Made by a program: the position numbers and the translations under genes | Notes under the pieces: generated by a model | What the model saw: only the letters and a program-made list of their open reading frames with translations | What the model was told of the DNA's origin: nothing | The model's database searches: none | In this document: positions 36,921-45,942 of the stretch, in pieces | How the letters are laid out: each line of letters starts with the position of its first letter | Position numbering within the stretch: position 1 is the stretch's first letter | From: an uncultured Ruminococcus sp. | GTDB lineage: Bacteria > Bacillota > Clostridia > Oscillospirales > CAG-272 | Direction: 5' to 3' | NCBI GenBank assembly: GCA_902783755.1 | Contig: CACZSC010000149.1 | Span: 1-45,942 of the forward strand | Length of the DNA stretch: 45,942 nucleotides

Positions 36921-39470
36921 CTATGCTGTGACTATCCCTGCCGCTTCCCTGAATTCGGGAAGCTTTTTCGCGTCGTCTCTCATCTTGTACTTGAGGATCT
37001 TGCCTGCTGCGTTCATCGGGAAACTGTCTACGAACACGACGTATTTCGGGGTTTTATGCTTGGCCATGTGTTCCCTAACATAATCCTTGATCTCGTCGGC
37101 CGTGCAGTCCTCGCCCGGTTTTTTAATGACGCAGGCCATTATCTCCTCTCCGTATGCCTTGTCCGGCACTCCTATAACCTGGACGTCCTGCACTTTCGGA
37201 TAAGTATAGATGAAGTCCTCTATCTCCTTCGGATATATGTTTTCTCCGCCCCGGATTATCATGTCCTTGATCCTCCCGGTAATCTTGTAGTTGCCGTCGG
37301 GAAGCCTTCTCGCAAGGTCTCCGGTATGGAGCCAGCCCTCCTTGTCTATAGCAACGGAAGTCGCCTCGGGCATCTTGTAGTATCCCTTCATTATGTTGTA
37401 TCCGCGAGCCACAAACTCGCCGTCCACGTTGTCCGGACAGTCCTCTCCAGTCTCGGGGTTGACTATCTTGCATTCCACTCCGAAGATGGCGGAACCGACG
37501 GTATTCACGCGGGTCTCTATGGAATCCGTGGTCTTTGACATCGTCGTGGCCGGAGACGCCTCGGTCTGGCCGTAGGTGATGCATATTTCCGACATATGCA
37601 TCTTTTCTATCACCTCTTCCATCACTTTGATGGGACATGGAGAACCGGCCATGATGCCCGTACGCATATGTGAAAAGTCAGTATCCTTGAATTTCTCATG
37701 GCCCAGCATGGCTATAAACATGGTAGGCACTCCGTGGAAGGCGGTGATCTTCTCCCTGTCGATGCACTCCAGCCCCAGTCTGGGCGAGAACGCCGGGATG
37801 GGCGACATGGTAACGCCGTGCGTCATCGATGCGGTCATCGCCAGCACCATGCCGAAGCAGTGGAACATCGGGACCTGGATCATCATTCTGTCCGCTGTAG
37901 ACAGATCCATGCAGTCACCTATGGCCTTGCCGTTGTTCACGACATTGTAGTGAGAGAGCATGACTCCCTTCGGGAATCCCGTCGTGCCGCTGGTATATTG
38001 CATGTTGCACACGTCATGCTTGTTGATCATCGCCGCTCTTCTGTACACCGCATCCATCGGAGTCCTCTGGGCCGCTTCTATCGCGTCCGCCCAGGTCAGA
38101 CATCCCTTGTGCTTGGATTCCACGGTTATGATGTTCCTCAAAAACGGAAGTCTTCTGCAGTGCAGCGGCTTCACCACTCCGTTTTCATCCTCGTTGTCCT
38201 TCAGCTCGGGAACTATCTCGTTCATGATCTTGACGTAATCTGAATCCTTGTATCCGTCCGTCATCACGAGGGTGTGGGTATCCGACTGTCTGAGCAGATA
38301 GTCCGCTTCGTGGACCTTGTATGCCGTGTTAACGGTCACCAGCACAGCGCCGATCCTTACTGTCGCCCAGAAAGTGATGAACCACTGGGGAACGTTGGTA
38401 GCCCAGATTGCGACATGGTCGCCCTGCTTCACGCCCAGTGAGATCAGCGAGCGTGCGAACAGATCCACGTCATCCCGGAATTCGCTCCATGTCCGCGTAT
38501 AGTCGCATGTCGTATACCGGAAGGCGTACCTTTCGGGGAACTCCTCCACCATGCGGTCCAGTACCTGCGGCATCGTCAGGTCTATGAGCTGTTCCTTCGG
38601 CCAGACGTAGTATCCCGCCCCTCTGTTGTCCGGGATCAGTCTGGCATTGCTCTCTGACACACCCAGATACAGGGACATGAAATGCGCGTAGTGTGGGAAC
38701 ACCACGCCCGGGTCTGAAAGATCAGGCGCGTACTGCTTCATCCACTCCAGCGATACGTATCCCTCGTAATTAAGAGACAGGAGCGCCTTCATATAGTCCG
38801 CCATCGGCGGCAGGTCTCCTTCTCCGACCAGCTTGTATATGAGCTTCCCGTCCTCCACTACGGAGTCCTTTATATGTATGTGCTTGATGTATGCTCCGAG
38901 ATTGTTTATGGTCGTCTGGGGCATCTCCCCGTTGAAGCGGAAAGGATGGTTGAAATCCCACAGGGCGGCCACATTGTCGCTCCCGACTCTTGCCAGGACG
39001 TCGGCAAGGCGGGCCGTATCGGAATAAACGCCGTTCGTCTCGAGAAGCAGGATCACTCCCGCCTGCTCGGCTATGGGAGCCAGTTCCTTCATCTGCTCCA
39101 CGACGAAATCGTCGTCGACCTGCATCTCAGGCTCAGCCGACGGTTCCCCGAGCACCCTGACGTAGGGCACGCCGAAAAAGCTGGCAAGCTCTATGTACCT
39201 GCAGATCTCCTTTCTGTTCTCTTCCCTCTTCTCCCTGTAACCCAGTGAGCACCCGGTGGAGAAGCAGCTGATCTCCAGCTTCTGCCTTTTCAGCTGATCC
39301 CTGGTCGCTTCGATGTTCTCGGGTTTGAAAGGCGAATTGTGCAGTTTGAAAATATCCTCTCCCGAGAGCCCCCTGATCTCGACCCCCTGGAATCCGAAGT
39401 CCTTGGCCATGGAGCATATGTCTATCCATGAAAAATCAGGACATCCCAATGTGGAAAATGAAATCTTCAT
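36921..39470 (-). CDS. Fusion protein: N-terminal xylose-isomerase-like TIM barrel (sugar-phosphate isomerase/epimerase fold) + C-terminal AMP-binding acyl-CoA synthetase
   Basis: This 849-aa ORF starts MKISFSTLGCPDFSW..GFQGVEIRG..VRVLG..LLLETNG..HIHIKD..YVSLEW (AP_endonuc_2/TIM-barrel pattern, ~aa 1-275). The adenylate-forming domain follows, with YTSGTTGFPKGVMLSH, YGQTE, GWLHTGDLA, GRIKDMIIRGGENIYP and GKILK. The RBS GGAGGG lies upstream. Confidence 0.8.
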   Translation of the reverse strand: MKISFSTLGCPDFSWIDICSMAKDFGFQGVEIRGLSGEDIFKLHNSPFKPENIEATRDQLKRQKLEISCFSTGCSLGYREKREENRKEICRYIELASFFGVPYVRVLGEPSAEPEMQVDDDFVVEQMKELAPIAEQAGVILLLETNGVYSDTARLADVLARVGSDNVAALWDFNHPFRFNGEMPQTTINNLGAYIKHIHIKDSVVEDGKLIYKLVGEGDLPPMADYMKALLSLNYEGYVSLEWMKQYAPDLSDPGVVFPHYAHFMSLYLGVSESNARLIPDNRGAGYYVWPKEQLIDLTMPQVLDRMVEEFPERYAFRYTTCDYTRTWSEFRDDVDLFARSLISLGVKQGDHVAIWATNVPQWFITFWATVRIGAVLVTVNTAYKVHEADYLLRQSDTHTLVMTDGYKDSDYVKIMNEIVPELKDNEDENGVVKPLHCRRLPFLRNIITVESKHKGCLTWADAIEAAQRTPMDAVYRRAAMINKHDVCNMQYTSGTTGFPKGVMLSHYNVVNNGKAIGDCMDLSTADRMMIQVPMFHCFGMVLAMTASMTHGVTMSPIPAFSPRLGLECIDREKITAFHGVPTMFIAMLGHEKFKDTDFSHMRTGIMAGSPCPIKVMEEVIEKMHMSEICITYGQTEASPATTMSKTTDSIETRVNTVGSAIFGVECKIVNPETGEDCPDNVDGEFVARGYNIMKGYYKMPEATSVAIDKEGWLHTGDLARRLPDGNYKITGRIKDMIIRGGENIYPKEIEDFIYTYPKVQDVQVIGVPDKAYGEEIMACVIKKPGEDCTADEIKDYVREHMAKHKTPKYVVFVDSFPMNAAGKILKYKMRDDAKKLPEFREAAGIVTA

Positions 39471-39482
39471 AAATCCCTCCGG

Positions 39483-39755
39483 AAAAACAAAAACACCGCT
39501 CGTCCCCTGTCCAAAGAGACGCGGTGCAAACCTCGTGGTACCACTCTTTTTCGATACTGATGTATCCTTTTCTCAGGCACGTTCCATGCCCTTCCGATAT
39601 AACGGTCGGTCCCGTCTGCATCTACTTTGCCTCCGGCATTTCGGACAGCCGCTGTGGAGTGAGTTATATACCGTTCGGATATTGCCTTTCACCTGCCGGC
39701 AACTCTCTGTGCATCTTCTCGGCTTTTATCTCCGTCATCGCGTTTTCCGCTATGC
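39483..39755 (-). promoter_or_regulatory. T-box riboswitch leader (minus strand) with terminator; candidate specifier CUC (Leu)
   Basis: On the minus strand the T-box motif is AGAGUGGUACCACGAGG (plus 39531-39546). The terminator pairs CACCGCGUC with GACGAGCGGUG (plus 39494-39526) and is followed by UUUUUGUUUUU. Stem I has GAUGA, AGAGA and a distal stem UUGCC/GGCAA with loop GGCAGGUGAAA. The 3' side of the specifier loop reads UAA-CUC-A-CUCC (CUC = plus 39661-39663). Confidence 0.75.
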
Positions 39756-39759
39756 GGAG

Positions 39760-39788
39760 ATTCTATCATGAATGTTTTGCCGTGTCAA
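39760..39788 (-). promoter_or_regulatory. Sigma-A promoter driving the minus-strand T-box leader
   Basis: On the minus strand: TTGACA (39788-39783), a 17-nt spacer, then TAGAAT (39765-39760) preceded by TG. Confidence 0.65.
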
Positions 39789-39884
39789 GTCAAACCGCAA
39801 AATTTCAGTTTTTCAGTTTTTCCGGTTTTATCCCCTGCTTCCGGGAACAGTTCACCAGATAAACATTTTTCGATATACAAAAGA

Positions 39885-39913
39885 TTGACACAAAAATTTT
39901 CAGATGATATAAT
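39885..39913 (+). promoter_or_regulatory. Consensus sigma-A promoter of the TerB/ATPase/helicase cassette
   Basis: TTGACA (39885-39890), a 17-nt spacer, then TATAAT (39908-39913) with TG at 39905-39906. Confidence 0.65.
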
Positions 39914-39951
39914 TATCTTTCAAGGTATTTTACGAAAAGGAGGCAATTGCC

Positions 39952-41826
39952 GTGGGAAACAGCGACGGATCCGCCCGCTCTCTTTCAGATATACTGACAG
40001 AACTTGAGAGCAGACTCAGTACGTGTACGCCCGAGGAAAAGCAGAAAGTTCTCGCGTCGATCACAAAAATCGCCGTGTCCCTAAATTCTGCCCGGACACA
40101 GCCCGTCCCCGAAGTCAGACCCGATATCCGGGATGACGGTTTCTGGCAGTTTGACCCGCCAAGGGAAAAGAAATACCGCAGACCGGATTTTGACACCCCG
40201 CCGGGTTCATATGACGTGAGCATCTCCGGATCACATGACCCTTCCCGCGCGCAGCAGCCCGAGCCAATACCCGCAAAAGGGACGCTCCCCGACGGAAACG
40301 TCCGGAAGCCGCTGTCAGATCACCAGACGATACCGTCCGATGCAGCGGATTCCGTCGTCAGAAAATACGGGTTTTCGCACGAAGGCCTGCTTTCCTACGT
40401 CACTGTAAGATCGAGAACGACAGACAATCTCTACAGTCACTTCTCCCGTGACGTAGCCCTGAGCCACCGTTCCGCTCCCGAATCTGAATTCCGCAGTCTC
40501 GCGCCAGTACCGTTCCAGTCATACGTGCCTCAGTTCTCGCACATGAGCAGCCAGCAGATCGAGTATTACAGAGCGTGGCGGGAAGAAGTCAGGAACGGAT
40601 CCTACCCCTCCTGCGACCTTTCATACATCATACTTTACATATACGAGATCATAAACCTGCCGGACATAATCCCTCCTCAGAAAGGCGTGAAGATCCTTTC
40701 TTCGCTGTGGATCGCCTACCGCGGAGCATACCCGAGGATCGACGGTTTTCTGGGAGAGTGGATGGCGGATTACTGCCTGATCCACGAAACCCCGCTGCCG
40801 AAGGCTCTTCTGCCGTATATCCCGCGGATCGTCCCCAAATCACAGTTCAAGGAATTCTACCTCCACCCCCTTCTCATCCTGGCCAGAAGCGAAGAAAAGA
40901 ACAATGTGTCCCTTTTCGGAAGGGCGGTCATGGAGACCCTTTCAGACTATGATTACACACAATCGAAATGCTACCTGCCCAACAGGGATTTTTACGATGC
41001 GGAATTGCCCTATCTTCTGGGCAAATTCATAACAAGAGCCGTCTCGGGCTCCATCCCTCCGCTCAGCCTTGACAGGGTTTATTCCCTGACGAGAGAAAGC
41101 TACAGCGGAGCCATAGTCTCCCCCGGCATAAAAATGCGGATCGATCTGAGTTTTCTTTCATTTTCCAGAAAAGCTGAATCACGCCAGGTGATCACTGCGG
41201 CTGTCAAGGAATGCGAAAACCGCATCAGATGTGTTCTCGGAATCAAATCCAAGCTGAAGACCGACCCGCTGCCTGCAGAGATCCAGTACAGTCTGACTGC
41301 GGCGCTGAATTCCGTTTATCCGCTGACTGCCCGCACCCAGAACCAGGAGCCCGACTACATGGAATACTATGAGCCTGAATCAACGGGATACGACTATGAT
41401 TCCGCCGCCGAGCTCGAGTATTCGTCCTGGACGAACACCGAACGCCTCACCGGCGAGGACCTGATCTCCCCGTCGCCGGAGGAATCTGCGGATGAAGATC
41501 TCCCTGTCGGGGCCATTGTATCGGCAGAGCCTGCCGCGGACACGGAGAGCAGCATGAGCGCCTCCGATTCCCCTGACGGCCGTATCACGGAGACCCGGGA
41601 TCAGGACATGACTGTAAAAGGCGCGGTACGCGCTGCGCTTGACGGCAGTTTCGCCCTGTTCTGCCGTGAAAACAGGCTGAACGAAGGAAATACGGCTGAC
41701 CTGGTAAACAGCCTGTTTCTTGACATACTCGGAGACGTGATCATAGAACCGGACGCCTCCGGAACATCATACAATCTTGTCGAAGATTACAGAAAGGATA
41801 TTGAAGAGTGGCTACTAACGTTCTGA
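39952..41826 (+). CDS. sngA: TerB-N / TerB-C domain protein (Shango SngA-like)
   Basis: This 624-aa ORF has a GTG start 8 nt after the RBS AAGGAGG. The central block QFSHMSSQQIEYYRAWREEVRNGSYPSCDLSYIILYIYEIINL matches the TerB-N signature as I remember it. The acidic linker is low-complexity. The C-terminal block ADLVNSLFLDILGDVIIEPD..YNLVEDYRKDIEEWL resembles TerB-C. Confidence 0.7.
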   Translation: MGNSDGSARSLSDILTELESRLSTCTPEEKQKVLASITKIAVSLNSARTQPVPEVRPDIRDDGFWQFDPPREKKYRRPDFDTPPGSYDVSISGSHDPSRAQQPEPIPAKGTLPDGNVRKPLSDHQTIPSDAADSVVRKYGFSHEGLLSYVTVRSRTTDNLYSHFSRDVALSHRSAPESEFRSLAPVPFQSYVPQFSHMSSQQIEYYRAWREEVRNGSYPSCDLSYIILYIYEIINLPDIIPPQKGVKILSSLWIAYRGAYPRIDGFLGEWMADYCLIHETPLPKALLPYIPRIVPKSQFKEFYLHPLLILARSEEKNNVSLFGRAVMETLSDYDYTQSKCYLPNRDFYDAELPYLLGKFITRAVSGSIPPLSLDRVYSLTRESYSGAIVSPGIKMRIDLSFLSFSRKAESRQVITAAVKECENRIRCVLGIKSKLKTDPLPAEIQYSLTAALNSVYPLTARTQNQEPDYMEYYEPESTGYDYDSAAELEYSSWTNTERLTGEDLISPSPEESADEDLPVGAIVSAEPAADTESSMSASDSPDGRITETRDQDMTVKGAVRAALDGSFALFCRENRLNEGNTADLVNSLFLDILGDVIIEPDASGTSYNLVEDYRKDIEEWLLTF

Positions 41827-43199
41827 ACCGGATACCCAAAAGGATCATGGGAACTCTGCTCTCATCCCTTTCCGGCGGAGTCGTCCCCAGGATGGGGGCT
41901 CCGTACATAGCTATCGGAAGAAAAGAAGAAATACAGGCGCTGGCCGACACTTTGGACCGGGTTGCCGAAGGAGAAGGAAGCACAAAATTCATCATCGGCA
42001 GGTACGGTTCCGGCAAAAGTTTCCTGATCCAGCTGGCCAGAGGATACGCGCTCGACAGAGGTTTCGTCACCGCGGACTGCGACCTTTCCCCCGAAAGGAA
42101 GCTGGCAGGCAGCGGGTTGTCCGGCCTGGCCACTTTCCGTGAGCTTATGAAAAATCTTGCGTGCAAGACTTCCCCCGACGGAGGAGCCCTGCCGGTCATC
42201 ATAGGCAAATGGTTCACTGGCATCGCCTCGGAACTGGAGGACGCAGGGTTTGACAGAAACCGTCAGGAATACTCCGACGAGTTCGCCAGAAGGATCTCGT
42301 CAAGCCTCCGGACGCTCGAATCGGATATAGGCGGTTTTGACTTTGCCGCGGTGATGAAGCAGTATTATACCGCATGGACCGAGGGCGATGACTCCAGACA
42401 GTCCGCGTGCCTGAAATGGCTGCGGGGAGAATATTCCACCCGTACCGAAGCCCGCCAGGGGCTTGACATCCGGTCCATCACGATCATCACAGACGACAAC
42501 TGGTATGATTATCTGAAGCTCTTCACTTCGTTCTTCAGACTGGTCGGATACAGCGGCTTCTGTCTCTACATAGACGAGTGCGTCAACCTGTACAAGATAC
42601 CGAACCGGATCTCCAGGGAGAACAACTACGAAAAGATCCTCTCAATGTTCAACGACACCATGCAGGGCAGAGCCCCGGGGCTGATGATCGTTTTCGGAGG
42701 CACCCCTCAGTTTCTCGAGGACACAAGGCGGGGACTGTACAGCTACGAGGCTCTCAGGAGCAGGCTGGCCGACGGAAGGTTCGGCGGCAGTGAATACCGT
42801 TCCCTCATGCAGCCGGTCATAAGGCTGAAACGCCTGTCCGACGCGGAGATGCTGGCGCTGATCATCAGGCTCACCTCCATCCACGGGGAATACCACGGCT
42901 GGACACCGAGGATCACGGAAGACGACATGAGCGACTTTCTGGCCACGTCTCTGAAGCGTGAGGGCGCAGAGACCATGATAACCCCCCGTGAAATAATACG
43001 CGACTACGTGACTCTTCTGGATCTGCTTTTCACCAATCCGAAGGCCACATATGCAGAGATCAAGAAAACGGCAGTCTCCGGGCCGCCGATCATTTCTTCC
43101 GAAAACGAAAATGACATTCCTGCAGGTCCGGTACCGCCGATACAGGCCACGGGCTCCCCGCAGTCCAGGCAGGTCACGCTGGACGATATAAAGTTCTGA
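41808..43199 (+). CDS. sngB: DUF2791-type (BREX BrxC/BrxD-related) P-loop ATPase (Shango SngB-like)
   Basis: This 463-aa ORF carries IAIGRKEE, Walker A FIIGRYGSGKSF (GGC at 41997) and Walker B-like GFCLYIDECVNL. The GTG start at 41808 overlaps sngA by 19 nt. The ATG at 41847 is an alternative, and neither has a strong RBS. Confidence 0.7.
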   Translation: MATNVLNRIPKRIMGTLLSSLSGGVVPRMGAPYIAIGRKEEIQALADTLDRVAEGEGSTKFIIGRYGSGKSFLIQLARGYALDRGFVTADCDLSPERKLAGSGLSGLATFRELMKNLACKTSPDGGALPVIIGKWFTGIASELEDAGFDRNRQEYSDEFARRISSSLRTLESDIGGFDFAAVMKQYYTAWTEGDDSRQSACLKWLRGEYSTRTEARQGLDIRSITIITDDNWYDYLKLFTSFFRLVGYSGFCLYIDECVNLYKIPNRISRENNYEKILSMFNDTMQGRAPGLMIVFGGTPQFLEDTRRGLYSYEALRSRLADGRFGGSEYRSLMQPVIRLKRLSDAEMLALIIRLTSIHGEYHGWTPRITEDDMSDFLATSLKREGAETMITPREIIRDYVTLLDLLFTNPKATYAEIKKTAVSGPPIISSENENDIPAGPVPPIQATGSPQSRQVTLDDIKF

Positions 43200-43219
43200 A
43201 TTAATCGAAAGGAACCGAC

Positions 43220-45448
43220 ATGTCTGTTTTTGAACTGTATTCACCATTCATCAGGGAATACATATATTCCCACGGCTGGGAAGCTCTCGGTCCCGTGCAG
43301 GTTGCCGCCGCACAGGAGATATTCTGCGGAAACAACAACCTTCTCCTTCACTCCCGGACCGCGTCCGGAAAGACCGAAGCTGCGTTTTTCCCCATCCTTT
43401 CCGAATTCTATGAAGACATGCCCACTACCTTCGGCGCCCTGTACATAGCGCCTCTCAAGTCCCTCATCAACGACCAATTCCTGAGGATAACCCAGGTCTG
43501 CGAAGACGCCGGAATCCCGGTGTTCCATTGGCACGGGGATGTTGCCCAGTCTCACAAGACGAAGGCTCTCGAGCATCCTTCGGGGATCCTGCAGATAACT
43601 CCGGAATCCCTCGAATCCATGCTCATGAACCGCTCTTCCGACCTGATACGGCTGTTCGGGGATCTGAGATATATAGTCATAGATGAGATCCACACCCTCA
43701 CCGGTACCGACCGGGGCAACCAGATCCTCTGCCTGCTTTCAAGGCTTCAGAGAAAGACCGGTGTATATCCCAGAAGGATCGGACTGTCCGCCACAGTGGG
43801 GGATGTCAAAAAAGCCGCAGGGTGGCTAGAGGCCGGGAGCGGCAGGGCCACGACCGTACCAGAAGTTCCGAAGACGGAGCTGCACTGGCGTCTCGGCATG
43901 GAACATTTCTACATAATGAGCAAGGATGTGGCTGCTCTTCCCTCCACGGAGATCGGGCAGTCGGATACCATGCACATGGATCTCGGCTATGAATATATCT
44001 ACGATTCCGCCGTGGGCAAGAAAGCCATCGTGTTCTCAAATTCGAGGGAAGAGACCGAATACGTCTGCGCCACGCTCCGTGAGATCGCAAGATACAGGGG
44101 AGAGCCGGATATATTCCTTATCCACCATGGGTTCCTTTCAGCGAGCATCAGGGAAGAAGCTGAGATGAAAATGAAAGACGACTCCATTCCCGCAGTCACC
44201 TGCGCTACGGTCACCATGGAACTCGGCATAGATATCGGAAGGCTTGAACGGATAATCCAGCAGGGCTCTCCGAATTCTGTGTCCTCATTCCTGCAGAGAC
44301 TCGGCAGAAGCGGAAGAAGAGGGGATCCGCCGGAAATGCTGATGGTGTTCAGGGAAGAAAATCCCCTGCCCAACGCACCTCTCCCGGAACTGATCCCCTG
44401 GGAGCTGCTCAAGGCTATTGCCATAGTGCAACTCTATATCGAAGAGCGCTTTATCGAACCTCCGGTGACAAAGAAGTGCCCCTTCTCACTCATGTTCCAT
44501 CAGACTCTTTCGATCATTGCTTCAAGCGGCGCTCTGTCCCCTGCCGCTCTTGCAGATATAGTCCTGAACCTTCCTCCGTTCGCCCTTGTGGACCGGGAGG
44601 ACTACAAGCTCCTTCTCGTGACGATGATAAATCACGACTGGCTGGAGCTCACAGAGAACGGTGAGCTCATAATAGGGCTGAGGGGCGAAAAACTCATAAA
44701 CTCGTTCAAATTCTATGCAGTTTTCAAGGATACGGAAGACTTTACCGTAAGATGTGAATCCGGCGAGATCGGCGTTATAACCACGCCCCCGCCTGTGGGA
44801 GACAGATTTGCTCTGGCCGGCCGGGTATGGCAGGTAGAGGAGCTCGATATCCCCCGCCACCTCATATACGTCAAACCGGTCGACGGAAAGATGGAAGTGA
44901 GCTGGCCGGGCGATTACGGCGAGGTCCACACCAGGATACTCGAACGCATGAAGCAGGTGCTCTGCGAAGACACTGAATATCCCTATCTCCACAAGCAGGC
45001 TCTCGAAAGGCTGCGCACGGCCCGCGCCGTTGCCCGCAACACCGGCATCTGCGACAAGCCCATCCTCCACCTCGGCGGATATACCTGGGCTCTCTTCCCC
45101 TGGCTCGGGACCCGCAGCTTCCGGACGCTCAGGAGATACGTCTCCAGATATGCAGGCAAATACAAACTGTCCGGAATGGAATATGAAGGCTGCTACTACA
45201 TGACCTTCAAGCTGGAGGGCGGGAGCGGCGTGAACATGCTCAGAGAGCTGTCGGACGGCATAATACGGAACGGAATAGACCTTTCCGCGCTGATCGGCCC
45301 TGCAGAAACGCCAGTATTTGAGAAATTCGACGAATTCCTTCCATCGGAACTTCTGAGGAAGGCATACATGGAAGACAAGCTGAGATCAGACGAGCTCGAC
45401 ATAAGAGCTCACGATTTTCTAAGAGAATTGGGTGAAAAAAATGCCTGA
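43220..45448 (+). CDS. sngC: Lhr-like DEAD/DEAH-box (SF2) helicase with a long C-terminal extension (Shango SngC-like)
   Basis: This 742-aa ORF has motif [13 protein letters not shown], Ia [25 protein letters not shown] and [11 protein letters not shown], followed by ~350 aa of C-terminal region. Confidence 0.8.
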
Positions 45449-45942
45449 CAAGATTTCACTCCGCGGCGTGCGGATGAACAATTTGAAGAATATCTCGGTG
45501 GATATACCGAGGGACAAGCTGGTGGTCTTCACCGGCCTTTCCGGTTCCGGAAAATCCTCCCTGGCCTTTGACACCATCTACGCGGAAGGCCACAGAAGGT
45601 TCGTGGAGTCTCTGTCTTCATATGCCAGAATGTTCATAGGACAGCTGGACAAGCCGGATCTCGACTCTGTAGTCGGGCTGTCTCCGGCTATATCAATAGA
45701 CCAGAAGACGACCTCCAAGAACCCACGCTCGACCGTCGGGACCGTGACCGAGATATACGATTATCTCCGCCTTCTCTACTCACGCCTGGGAACTCCTCAC
45801 TGCCCGGTGTGCGGAAGAGAGATCAAGCAGTCTTCGACAGACGTGATCGTTGACAGCATCATGGAACTGCCTGAGGGCACAAGATTCATGATCCTTTCCC
45901 CGGTCGTAAGGGCAAAAAAGGGCCGTCAGGAAAAGGTGCTGG
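45441..45942 (+). CDS. uvrA: Excinuclease ABC subunit A (N-terminal fragment; continues past the right edge)
   Basis: This gene is absent from the ORF track because it has no stop in the window. Translation from the ATG at 45441 gives [89 protein letters not shown], which is unmistakably UvrA. Confidence 0.95.

Follow-up and report, generated by a model that had tools for sequence, protein, structure and literature searches.

The window analysed here is a complete contig of 45,942 bp (CACZSC010000149.1) from an uncultured Ruminococcus sp., and nothing beyond the 5' part of its last gene, uvrA, is readable. The nearest matches place its source among uncultured rumen and gut metagenome-assembled genomes (MAGs) labelled Clostridia, Oscillospiraceae, or Ruminococcus. 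Towards the 3' end lie three co-directional genes that almost certainly represent a genuine chromosomal copy of Shango (SngABC), and thus a new member of a system already described. The genes, with coordinates from the list of open reading frames (ORFs), and the signals in front of them are:

39885..39913, + strand, Sigma-70-type operon promoter (TTGACA, a 17-nt spacer with an extended upstream TG, TATAAT)
39937..39943, + strand, ribosome-binding site AAGGAGG, 8 nt 5' of the sngA GTG (39952), read from the sequence
39952..41826, + strand, sngA, GTG start, 624 amino acids (aa)
41808..43199, + strand, sngB, GTG start, 463 aa
43220..45448, + strand, sngC, ATG start, 742 aa
45441..45942, + strand, uvrA, 5' part, running off the contig end; its ATG at 45441 overlaps the sngC TGA at 45446-45448 (ATGCCTGA)

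A first-pass annotation of this DNA had described three tightly packed co-directional ORFs with a 19-nt overlap between the first two (41808-41826) and a 20-nt gap between the second and third (43200-43219), and these coordinates match the ORF list exactly. It had also given the genes a consensus promoter of their own at 39885-39913, which scores 12/12 in a consensus scan and is the sole perfect site within 39300-45942. All motifs it quoted, including K70 of gene 2, occur once each, where it had placed them. The three-gene unit stands as read, but a fourth co-directional gene, uvrA, had been omitted.

Across the promoter stretch (39880-39938), the window shares 86% identity with the syntenic locus of a goat-rumen MAG (L001), where the remaining intergenic DNA does not align except on the side of a T-box leader that belongs to the divergent neighbour. 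Upstream of sngA, the intergenic DNA spans 414 nt here (39471-39884) and about 1,060 nt in L001 (5686-6748). Because AAGGAGG stands 8 nt before the GTG at 39952, the long N-terminus of SngA is real. The sngB start codon is retained as GTG in L001 and as TTG in the related locus L002, while the internal Met14 is replaced by Leu in both, so the 19-nt overlap of sngA and sngB also appears real. The sequence GAAAGGA is found 6 nt 5' of the sngC ATG.

Shango, as defined in E. coli (Millman et al. 2022) and in the cDHS1 locus of P. aeruginosa PA14 (Johnson et al. 2023), combines a TerB-like protein with an ATPase and a DEAD/DEAH helicase. The best PADLOC profile for each of the three window genes is SngA (5.6e-31), SngB (1.4e-156), and SngC (1e-236), in the canonical A-B-C order, which bears out the Shango homologue proposed in the first-pass annotation. 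NCBIfam holds no Shango models. As the Sng profiles score best and the BrxD and Lhr-type equivalogs fall far below their cut-offs, the triad corresponds to the three-gene definition of Shango. With E-values of 1e-16 to 1e-236 against curated profiles and a gene order shared by about 55 other genomes, the triad is not a chance assembly. Among the models that had been named as a check on this reading, TerB_N and BrxC_BrxD match significantly, as do the PADLOC Sng profiles, whereas TerB_C has no match in SngA and DEAD_assoc none in SngC.

SngA aligns over aa 182-621 with positions 99-527 of the 528 positions of the PADLOC SngA profile and matches Pfam TerB_N (2.7e-16, 60.4 bits against a cut-off of 25). 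The motifs quoted for it are QQIEYYRAWREEVRNG at aa 201-216, DLSYIILYIYEIINL at aa 222-236, and LDILGDVIIEPD at aa 590-601. The protein had been read as TerB-N plus TerB-C, and the first half of that reading holds. SngA itself gives zero Pfam TerB_C matches, even at E<=10, and the TerB-C assignment comes solely through its homologues (transitive homology): PF15615 (TerB_C) is present at the extreme C-termini of 23 of 49 SngA homologues, for example at aa 455-597 of homologue P0048 (profile positions 14-147 of 148), and the aligned C-terminal residues N586, G594, D595, and Y613 of SngA are invariant across the family.

In the AlphaFold2 model of SngA (pLDDT 79), an N-terminal helical hairpin (aa 10-49) is tied by a disordered linker (aa 50-130) to a well-predicted helical core (aa ~130-460) that contains TerB_N; a second disordered linker, acidic in composition (aa 504-547), leads to a small domain at the C-terminus that is TerB-C-like (aa ~550-624). 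The model has no significant Foldseek match in the PDB (best E 0.84) or BFVD (best E 0.076), and the SngA alignment, used as a profile against PDB sequences, found no solved relatives. No transmembrane segment is predicted (maximum Kyte-Doolittle value over 19 residues, 1.29). Inside the otherwise disordered and fast-evolving N-terminal linker, F64 and W65 (aa 63-66, window positions 40138-40150) are near-invariant across 39 homologues, with the consensus DDFWDLG; this segment looks like a candidate short docking motif.

SngB matches Pfam BrxC_BrxD (PF10923, the DUF2791/BrxC-BrxD family) at 3.1e-144 and AAA_16 at 1.4e-10. The PADLOC SngB profile scores 520 bits, compared with 157 bits (1.6e-46) for BrxD, and the NCBIfam BREX_BrxD model reaches 156 bits, below its cut-off of 350. 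Walker A (GRYGSGKS, aa 64-71, with K70) and Walker B (LYIDE, aa 253-257) are both intact. The earlier assignment of gene 2 to the DUF2791/BrxC-BrxD ATPases is thus upheld, Walker motifs included, and by its sequence SngB is a BrxD-type ORC/Cdc6-like AAA+ ATPase. A phmmer sequence search of the PDB returned no solved relatives.

SngC matches the PADLOC SngC profile over aa 3-725 (786 bits, compared with 416 bits and 7.6e-125 for BrxHI) as well as Pfam DEAD (8.4e-28) and Helicase_C (1.9e-14). Its superfamily 2 (SF2) motifs I, II, III, and VI are intact: TASGKT (aa 47-52), DEIH (aa 155-158), SAT (aa 190-192), and QRLGRSGRR (aa 359-367). The first-pass annotation had added an Lhr-type C-terminus to the SF2 motifs. 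By Pfam this extension is not recovered (no DEAD_assoc or Lhr C-terminal match at E<=10, and WH_Lhr only at E 0.11). By fold it is: the AlphaFold2 model (pLDDT 73) matches the Lhr-core of M. smegmatis (5v9x_A) over its whole length (E 4e-23, TMq 0.65, 827 alignment columns), followed in the ranking by MrfA (6znp) and then Hel308/Hjm. Sequence matches in the PDB are YprA/MrfA (5e-29) and Lhr (3e-27). Scores against the NCBIfam Lhr-type models are all far below the cut-offs (TIGR04121, 204 of 850 bits; PRK13767, 176 of 849; PRK09751, 93 of 1496), and the likeness to Lhr is one of predicted fold only. SngC is modelled as an SF2 helicase of the Lhr-like DEAH type that combines two RecA domains with a winged helix and, at its C-terminus, a beta-barrel/alpha-beta domain. 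Pfam and fold searches detected no nuclease domain in SngC, and no recognisable nuclease or toxin domain in any of the three proteins. No transmembrane helix is predicted in SngA, SngB, or SngC, and all three are predicted to be cytosolic.

A scan for SngC relatives over one genome per GTDB species found 108 stretches, the best 80 of which were kept as related loci. All of these best 80 come from rumen or gut Clostridia MAGs (93-57% identity). The order SngA-SngB-SngC is found in about 55 of the 80, and most of the others are too short to tell. The nearest GTDB representative, the goat-rumen MAG 'Clostridia bacterium RGIG3705' (JAFTCY010000127; 93% SngC identity), has the same gene order as the window from paaK to uvrA. 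Clustering of flanking ORFs placed the triad in at least three distinct conserved housekeeping syntenies. In the first, which includes the window and L001-L005, L007-L014, and L024, the triad is followed by uvrA. In the second (about 17 species), the order is ispE, triad, methyltransferase, hsp33, PPi-PFK, metK, and recD2, and in the third (five species) the triad is followed by ilvA; gene names in these two groups come from inspection of the sequences, not from profile searches. Some loci have an extra ORF between sngB and sngC: a 442-aa protein that is glycoside hydrolase-like by eye, with no profile search (L044:8637-9965 and L068:8625-9953), a ~190-aa multi-pass membrane protein (L036:9301-9864 and L039:9317-9910), or a ~210-aa protein with no assigned function (L041:2178-2828 and L079:8959-9582).

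Elsewhere the triad is found on plasmids. A tblastn search of plasmids with SngB returned 697 records, 542 of them conjugative. Eight annotated plasmid triads, all in the A-B-C order, are from Clostridium, Paenibacillus, Bacillus, Aeromonas, Arthrobacter, Methylorubrum, and Polymorphobacter (Bacillota, Actinomycetota, and Pseudomonadota), and they adjoin a relaxase, IS elements, an integrase, ZorA (Zorya), or PD-(D/E)XK/UvrD pairs, i.e., contexts of the mobile or defence type that is usual for Shango. Viral contigs, in which no relatives were seen, gave no support to an origin from a prophage or virus; this is a weak negative, as the scan patterns reach close relatives only.

We compared evolutionary rates between the window and the syntenic L001. 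Synonymous differences are saturated (pS 0.61-0.77), which makes dN/dS unreliable, and only ratios of the nonsynonymous rate (dN) were therefore used. The dN is 0.040 for SngC, 0.097 for SngB, and 0.244 for SngA, and among the flanking genes it is 0.024 for PaaK, 0.024 for an AP_endonuc_2/AMP-binding fusion, and 0.039 for UvrA. SngA thus has about six times the dN of SngC, with its divergence concentrated in aa 1-120 and 485-553. The same ranking is seen within the syntenic groups, where mean pairwise identity is 73-77% for SngC, 67-72% for SngB, and 39-49% for SngA, compared with 65% for PFK, 71% for Hsp33, 48% for IspE, and 78% for UvrA in the flanks. Positive correlations link the identities of the Sng proteins to those of the flanking genes (Spearman 0.37-0.86 for SngC). 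The triad is under long-term purifying selection, and the pattern indicates long vertical co-divergence of a strongly constrained motor pair with a fast-evolving SngA. These rates fit a constrained enzymatic core combined with a fast-evolving sensor.

The gene that follows the triad encodes a UvrA with a canonical N-terminus and matches to Pfam UvrA_inter (1.6e-07) and ABC_tran. It has the N-terminal ABC signature and the UvrB-interaction domain that characterise class I UvrA. Its full-length orthologue in L001 has 958 aa and is 94% identical over the part present in the window, and UvrA is 84-94% identical among neighbouring species. The start/stop overlap with sngC measures 8 nt and is retained in L001 and L002 but absent from more distant relatives. 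As the uvrA ATG overlaps the sngC stop (ATGCCTGA) and no convincing terminator was seen between the two genes, sngA, sngB, sngC, and uvrA are probably co-transcribed as one operon, and uvrA may be translationally coupled to sngC.

UvrA is not a recognised Shango component, and it lies directly downstream of the triad in the closest loci only, i.e., those of the first syntenic group. The gaps between sngC and uvrA are 60-930 nt in L003-L013, and about 65 other Clostridial Shango loci have no uvrA beside them. Conversely, none of 80 metagenomic uvrA loci from somewhat more distant relatives (65-82% identity) contains Sng genes. A second case of proximity is found on the C. estertheticum plasmid pCF002-344, where an 848-aa UvrA-family paralogue without the UvrB-binding insert begins 18 nt after SngC (L161:10578-13124). 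This paralogue is 33% identical to the L001 UvrA; the genes most similar to it, from several phyla and 81-85% identical, stand alone in unrelated contexts. A dedicated Shango-associated clade of UvrA was rejected on these two grounds, the stand-alone homologues of the plasmid paralogue and the 80 uvrA loci without Sng genes. SOS regulation was also rejected: CGAACNNNNGTTCG, with up to 2 mismatches, gave 26 matches, compared with 27 expected by chance, and no LexA/Cheo box is present near the Shango promoter (39800-39960). Because the adjacency is confined to the closest subclade, the homologues of the paralogue stand alone, and the promoter has no LexA/Cheo box, we treat the link between uvrA and Shango as probably positional, with a small chance that it is functional.

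The other 30 ORFs of the contig are ordinary genes by Pfam. They include VanY, an rRNA methylase, a 2-oxoacid:ferredoxin oxidoreductase, a glycoside hydrolase, the rimP-nusA-ylxR-L7Ae-infB operon, ABC transporters, DUF5696, a ROK kinase, and PaaK-like ligases. The 414-nt spacer 5' of the Shango promoter belongs to a divergent gene, which has its own minus-strand promoter (39788-39760, 11/12) and the following features:

39512-39747, - strand, T-box leader (RF00230), full-length, 78 bits, E 3e-17, below the gathering score of 93
36921-39470, - strand, gene for an 849-aa fusion of a xylose-isomerase-like TIM barrel (AP_endonuc_2) with an AMP-binding domain, downstream of the T-box

The elements of the T-box leader are canonical (AGAGA, GGUGAAAG, AGUA, and UGGUACC), and the fusion is an unusual type of gene to be under tRNA-sensing control. 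At gathering thresholds, Rfam has no match in the whole window, and the T-box of the divergent neighbour is the sole RNA element near the Shango operon.

The best explanation for these observations is a chromosomal Shango operon that is driven by a consensus promoter of its own and whose transcription probably continues into uvrA, and we give this a probability of roughly 0.8. It is likely that the operon has an anti-phage role in the source organism. Anti-phage protection by Shango, cited as established in the first-pass annotation along with a mechanism still to be explained, has been validated in E. coli and P. aeruginosa PA14, and the role of the TerB module was still unclear in the literature as of 2025. 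That annotation had also drawn on a prediction by Anantharaman et al. (2012), which we cite as it is cited by Millman et al. and Johnson et al.

Several observations weigh against an operon devoted to phage defence. Published activity is confined to the E. coli and PA14 systems (Millman et al., Johnson et al.), and the effects are modest (10- to 100-fold). Searches with Pfam (including E<=10) and by fold found no effector domain in the triad, and the literature searched contained no mechanism, structure, or biochemistry of Sng proteins, such that how Shango would work here is something we infer. Around the 80 related loci, the flanking DNA showed no defence island, integrase, mobile element, or known defence gene. 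The 46-kb contig likewise has no integrase, defence gene, or mobile element (Pfam on the 30 other ORFs; PADLOC on the ten nearest or largest neighbours, which gave generic P-loop noise only), in agreement with the housekeeping neighbourhood described in the first pass. SngC is conserved as much as, or more than, flanking housekeeping genes, which is atypical for defence genes. Finally, L007, L018, L023, and L033 have SngC alone, and L015 and L024 have SngB and SngC without SngA. The SngC homologues of these loci are intact (64-75% identity), and the copy in L007 occupies the same uvrA-adjacent position, which suggests that the helicase can be useful, or be retained, on its own.

A different account of the same features would be a domesticated genome-maintenance module, i.e., a vertically inherited triad for DNA repair or replication stress that perhaps acts beside nucleotide excision repair through its coupling to uvrA. 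The uvrA start inside the end of sngC and the position of uvrA in the closest loci are what such a module would lead one to expect, as are the three housekeeping syntenies conserved across dozens of species and the behaviour of SngC, whose identity is near or above that of the flanks and correlates with theirs and whose dN (0.040) equals that of a repair gene (0.039 for UvrA) within a thousandth. The loci that keep SngC alone or with SngB and the independent UvrA-family adjacency on pCF002-344 point the same way. The nearest solved relatives of SngC are Lhr and MrfA, which are bacterial DNA-repair helicases. Yet the uvrA adjacency does not extend beyond the closest subclade to the ~65 other Clostridial Shango loci, the 80 uvrA loci of more distant relatives are free of Sng genes, the promoter carries no LexA/Cheo box, and the closest homologues of the plasmid paralogue stand alone. 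Moreover, the triad is clearly mobile and associated with defence elsewhere, and the fast evolution of SngA is more typical of an immune sensor. We therefore consider genome maintenance unlikely as the role of the triad. If it were true, Shango would not be purely anti-phage, and DNA structures that are damaged or aberrant would be what it naturally acts on, a logic that has reportedly been demonstrated recently for Hachiman.

A UvrA-family ABC ATPase could also be a true fourth component of a Shango variant, e.g., a sensor of DNA lesions or structures that feeds the helicase. The 8-nt overlap kept in L001 and L002 and the paralogue 18 nt after SngC on pCF002-344 would suit this idea, which we nonetheless regard as quite improbable: the window protein is a canonical class I UvrA with its UvrB-interaction domain and is highly conserved among neighbouring species, sngC and uvrA are separated by up to 930 nt in L003-L013, the seven other plasmid triads have unrelated fourth genes, and homologues of the UvrA paralogue are unlinked to Shango. 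Least probable is a remnant of type 2 BREX (Pgl) reduced to its BrxD-BrxHI dyad. SngB and SngC do match BrxD (1.6e-46) and BrxHI (7.6e-125), which are linked in type 2 BREX. The Sng profiles score far higher (520 versus 157 bits for gene 2 and 786 versus 416 bits for gene 3), SngB stays at 156 bits against the BREX_BrxD cut-off of 350, PglZ, PglX, BrxC/PglY, and PglW are absent by Pfam from the 30 other ORFs of the contig, and a TerB_N gene precedes the dyad, as in Shango.

Returning to the Shango operon, we can offer a tentative scheme, of which we are doubtful, that is modelled on the homology of SngB and SngC to the BrxD-BrxHI dyad and to the Lhr-core. SngB, as an ORC/Cdc6-type AAA+ ATPase, would oligomerise and then load or activate SngC, and SngC, an Lhr-like single-strand translocase/helicase of 3'-to-5' polarity, would work on the ends of phage DNA or on replication intermediates. 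SngA (TerB-N with a putative TerB-C), by far the fastest-evolving of the three, may be the sensor or regulator through which a signal derived from phage or stress reaches the ATPase and helicase. Intermediates of phage replication or recombination would then be stalled or unwound, and this would give the defence; because the three proteins have no recognisable nuclease, DNA is unlikely to be cleaved directly.

Shango is a helicase-based defence system whose trigger, target, and effector are still to be explained, and this locus does not answer these questions. It does indicate that Shango is widespread among uncultured Clostridia of the gut and rumen, where its inheritance is stable, and since these copies lie outside defence islands, surveys based on islands would under-count the system. 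The differing rates (housekeeping-like in SngC, intermediate in SngB, and fast in SngA) point to SngA as the specificity or sensor component and make it a target for domain-swap experiments. The repeated proximity of UvrA-family genes and the Lhr-core fold suggest sensing of DNA damage or replication intermediates as a candidate trigger. For annotation the Shango call itself is routine, and what novelty remains lies in the core-genome behaviour in gut Clostridia and in the coupling to uvrA.

Compared with Shango of E. coli and PA14, the window triad has the same three protein families in the same order, tightly packed, co-directional, and without a recognisable effector domain. It differs in that the ~180-aa N-terminal region of its SngA (hairpin and disordered linker) is not aligned to positions 1-98 of the PADLOC SngA profile, and in that its putative TerB_C domain is too divergent for Pfam. 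It also occupies a conserved housekeeping site, not a defence hotspot or plasmid, and has a downstream uvrA that may be translationally coupled to it through the start/stop overlap.

In type 2 BREX (Pgl), BrxD and BrxHI form a tightly linked dyad in which BrxD is a proposed helicase loader, and SngC clusters with BrxHI, DruE, and DpdJ in a defence-specific SF2 clade. The window shares with this dyad PF10923 (SngB), the helicase clade (SngC), the tight linkage of ATPase and helicase, and the proposed logic of an AAA+ loader with an Lhr-like helicase. Unlike type 2 BREX, it lacks PglZ, PglX, BrxC, and PglW, it has a TerB-N protein with a putative TerB-C domain in place of the BREX core, and its SngB is below the NCBIfam BrxD cut-off.

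With Lhr and Lhr-core of M. smegmatis (5v9x, 7lhl) and MrfA/YprA of B. subtilis (6znp), SngC shares the SF2 DEAH core, the winged helix, and a C-terminal domain, and by analogy it is probably a 3'-to-5' single-stranded-DNA translocase. In contrast to these helicases, to which its sequence identity is just 16-20%, SngC comes with an ATPase and a TerB protein as obligate partners and is without the DUF1998 domain found in MrfA. A TerB-related module is also used in phage defence by Bunzi (BnzA) and Dionysus (DinB), with a proposed function in sensing or membrane surveillance. In those systems TerB is paired with membrane proteins or pore-forming effectors, whereas here its partners are DNA-directed motors and all three proteins are predicted to be cytosolic.

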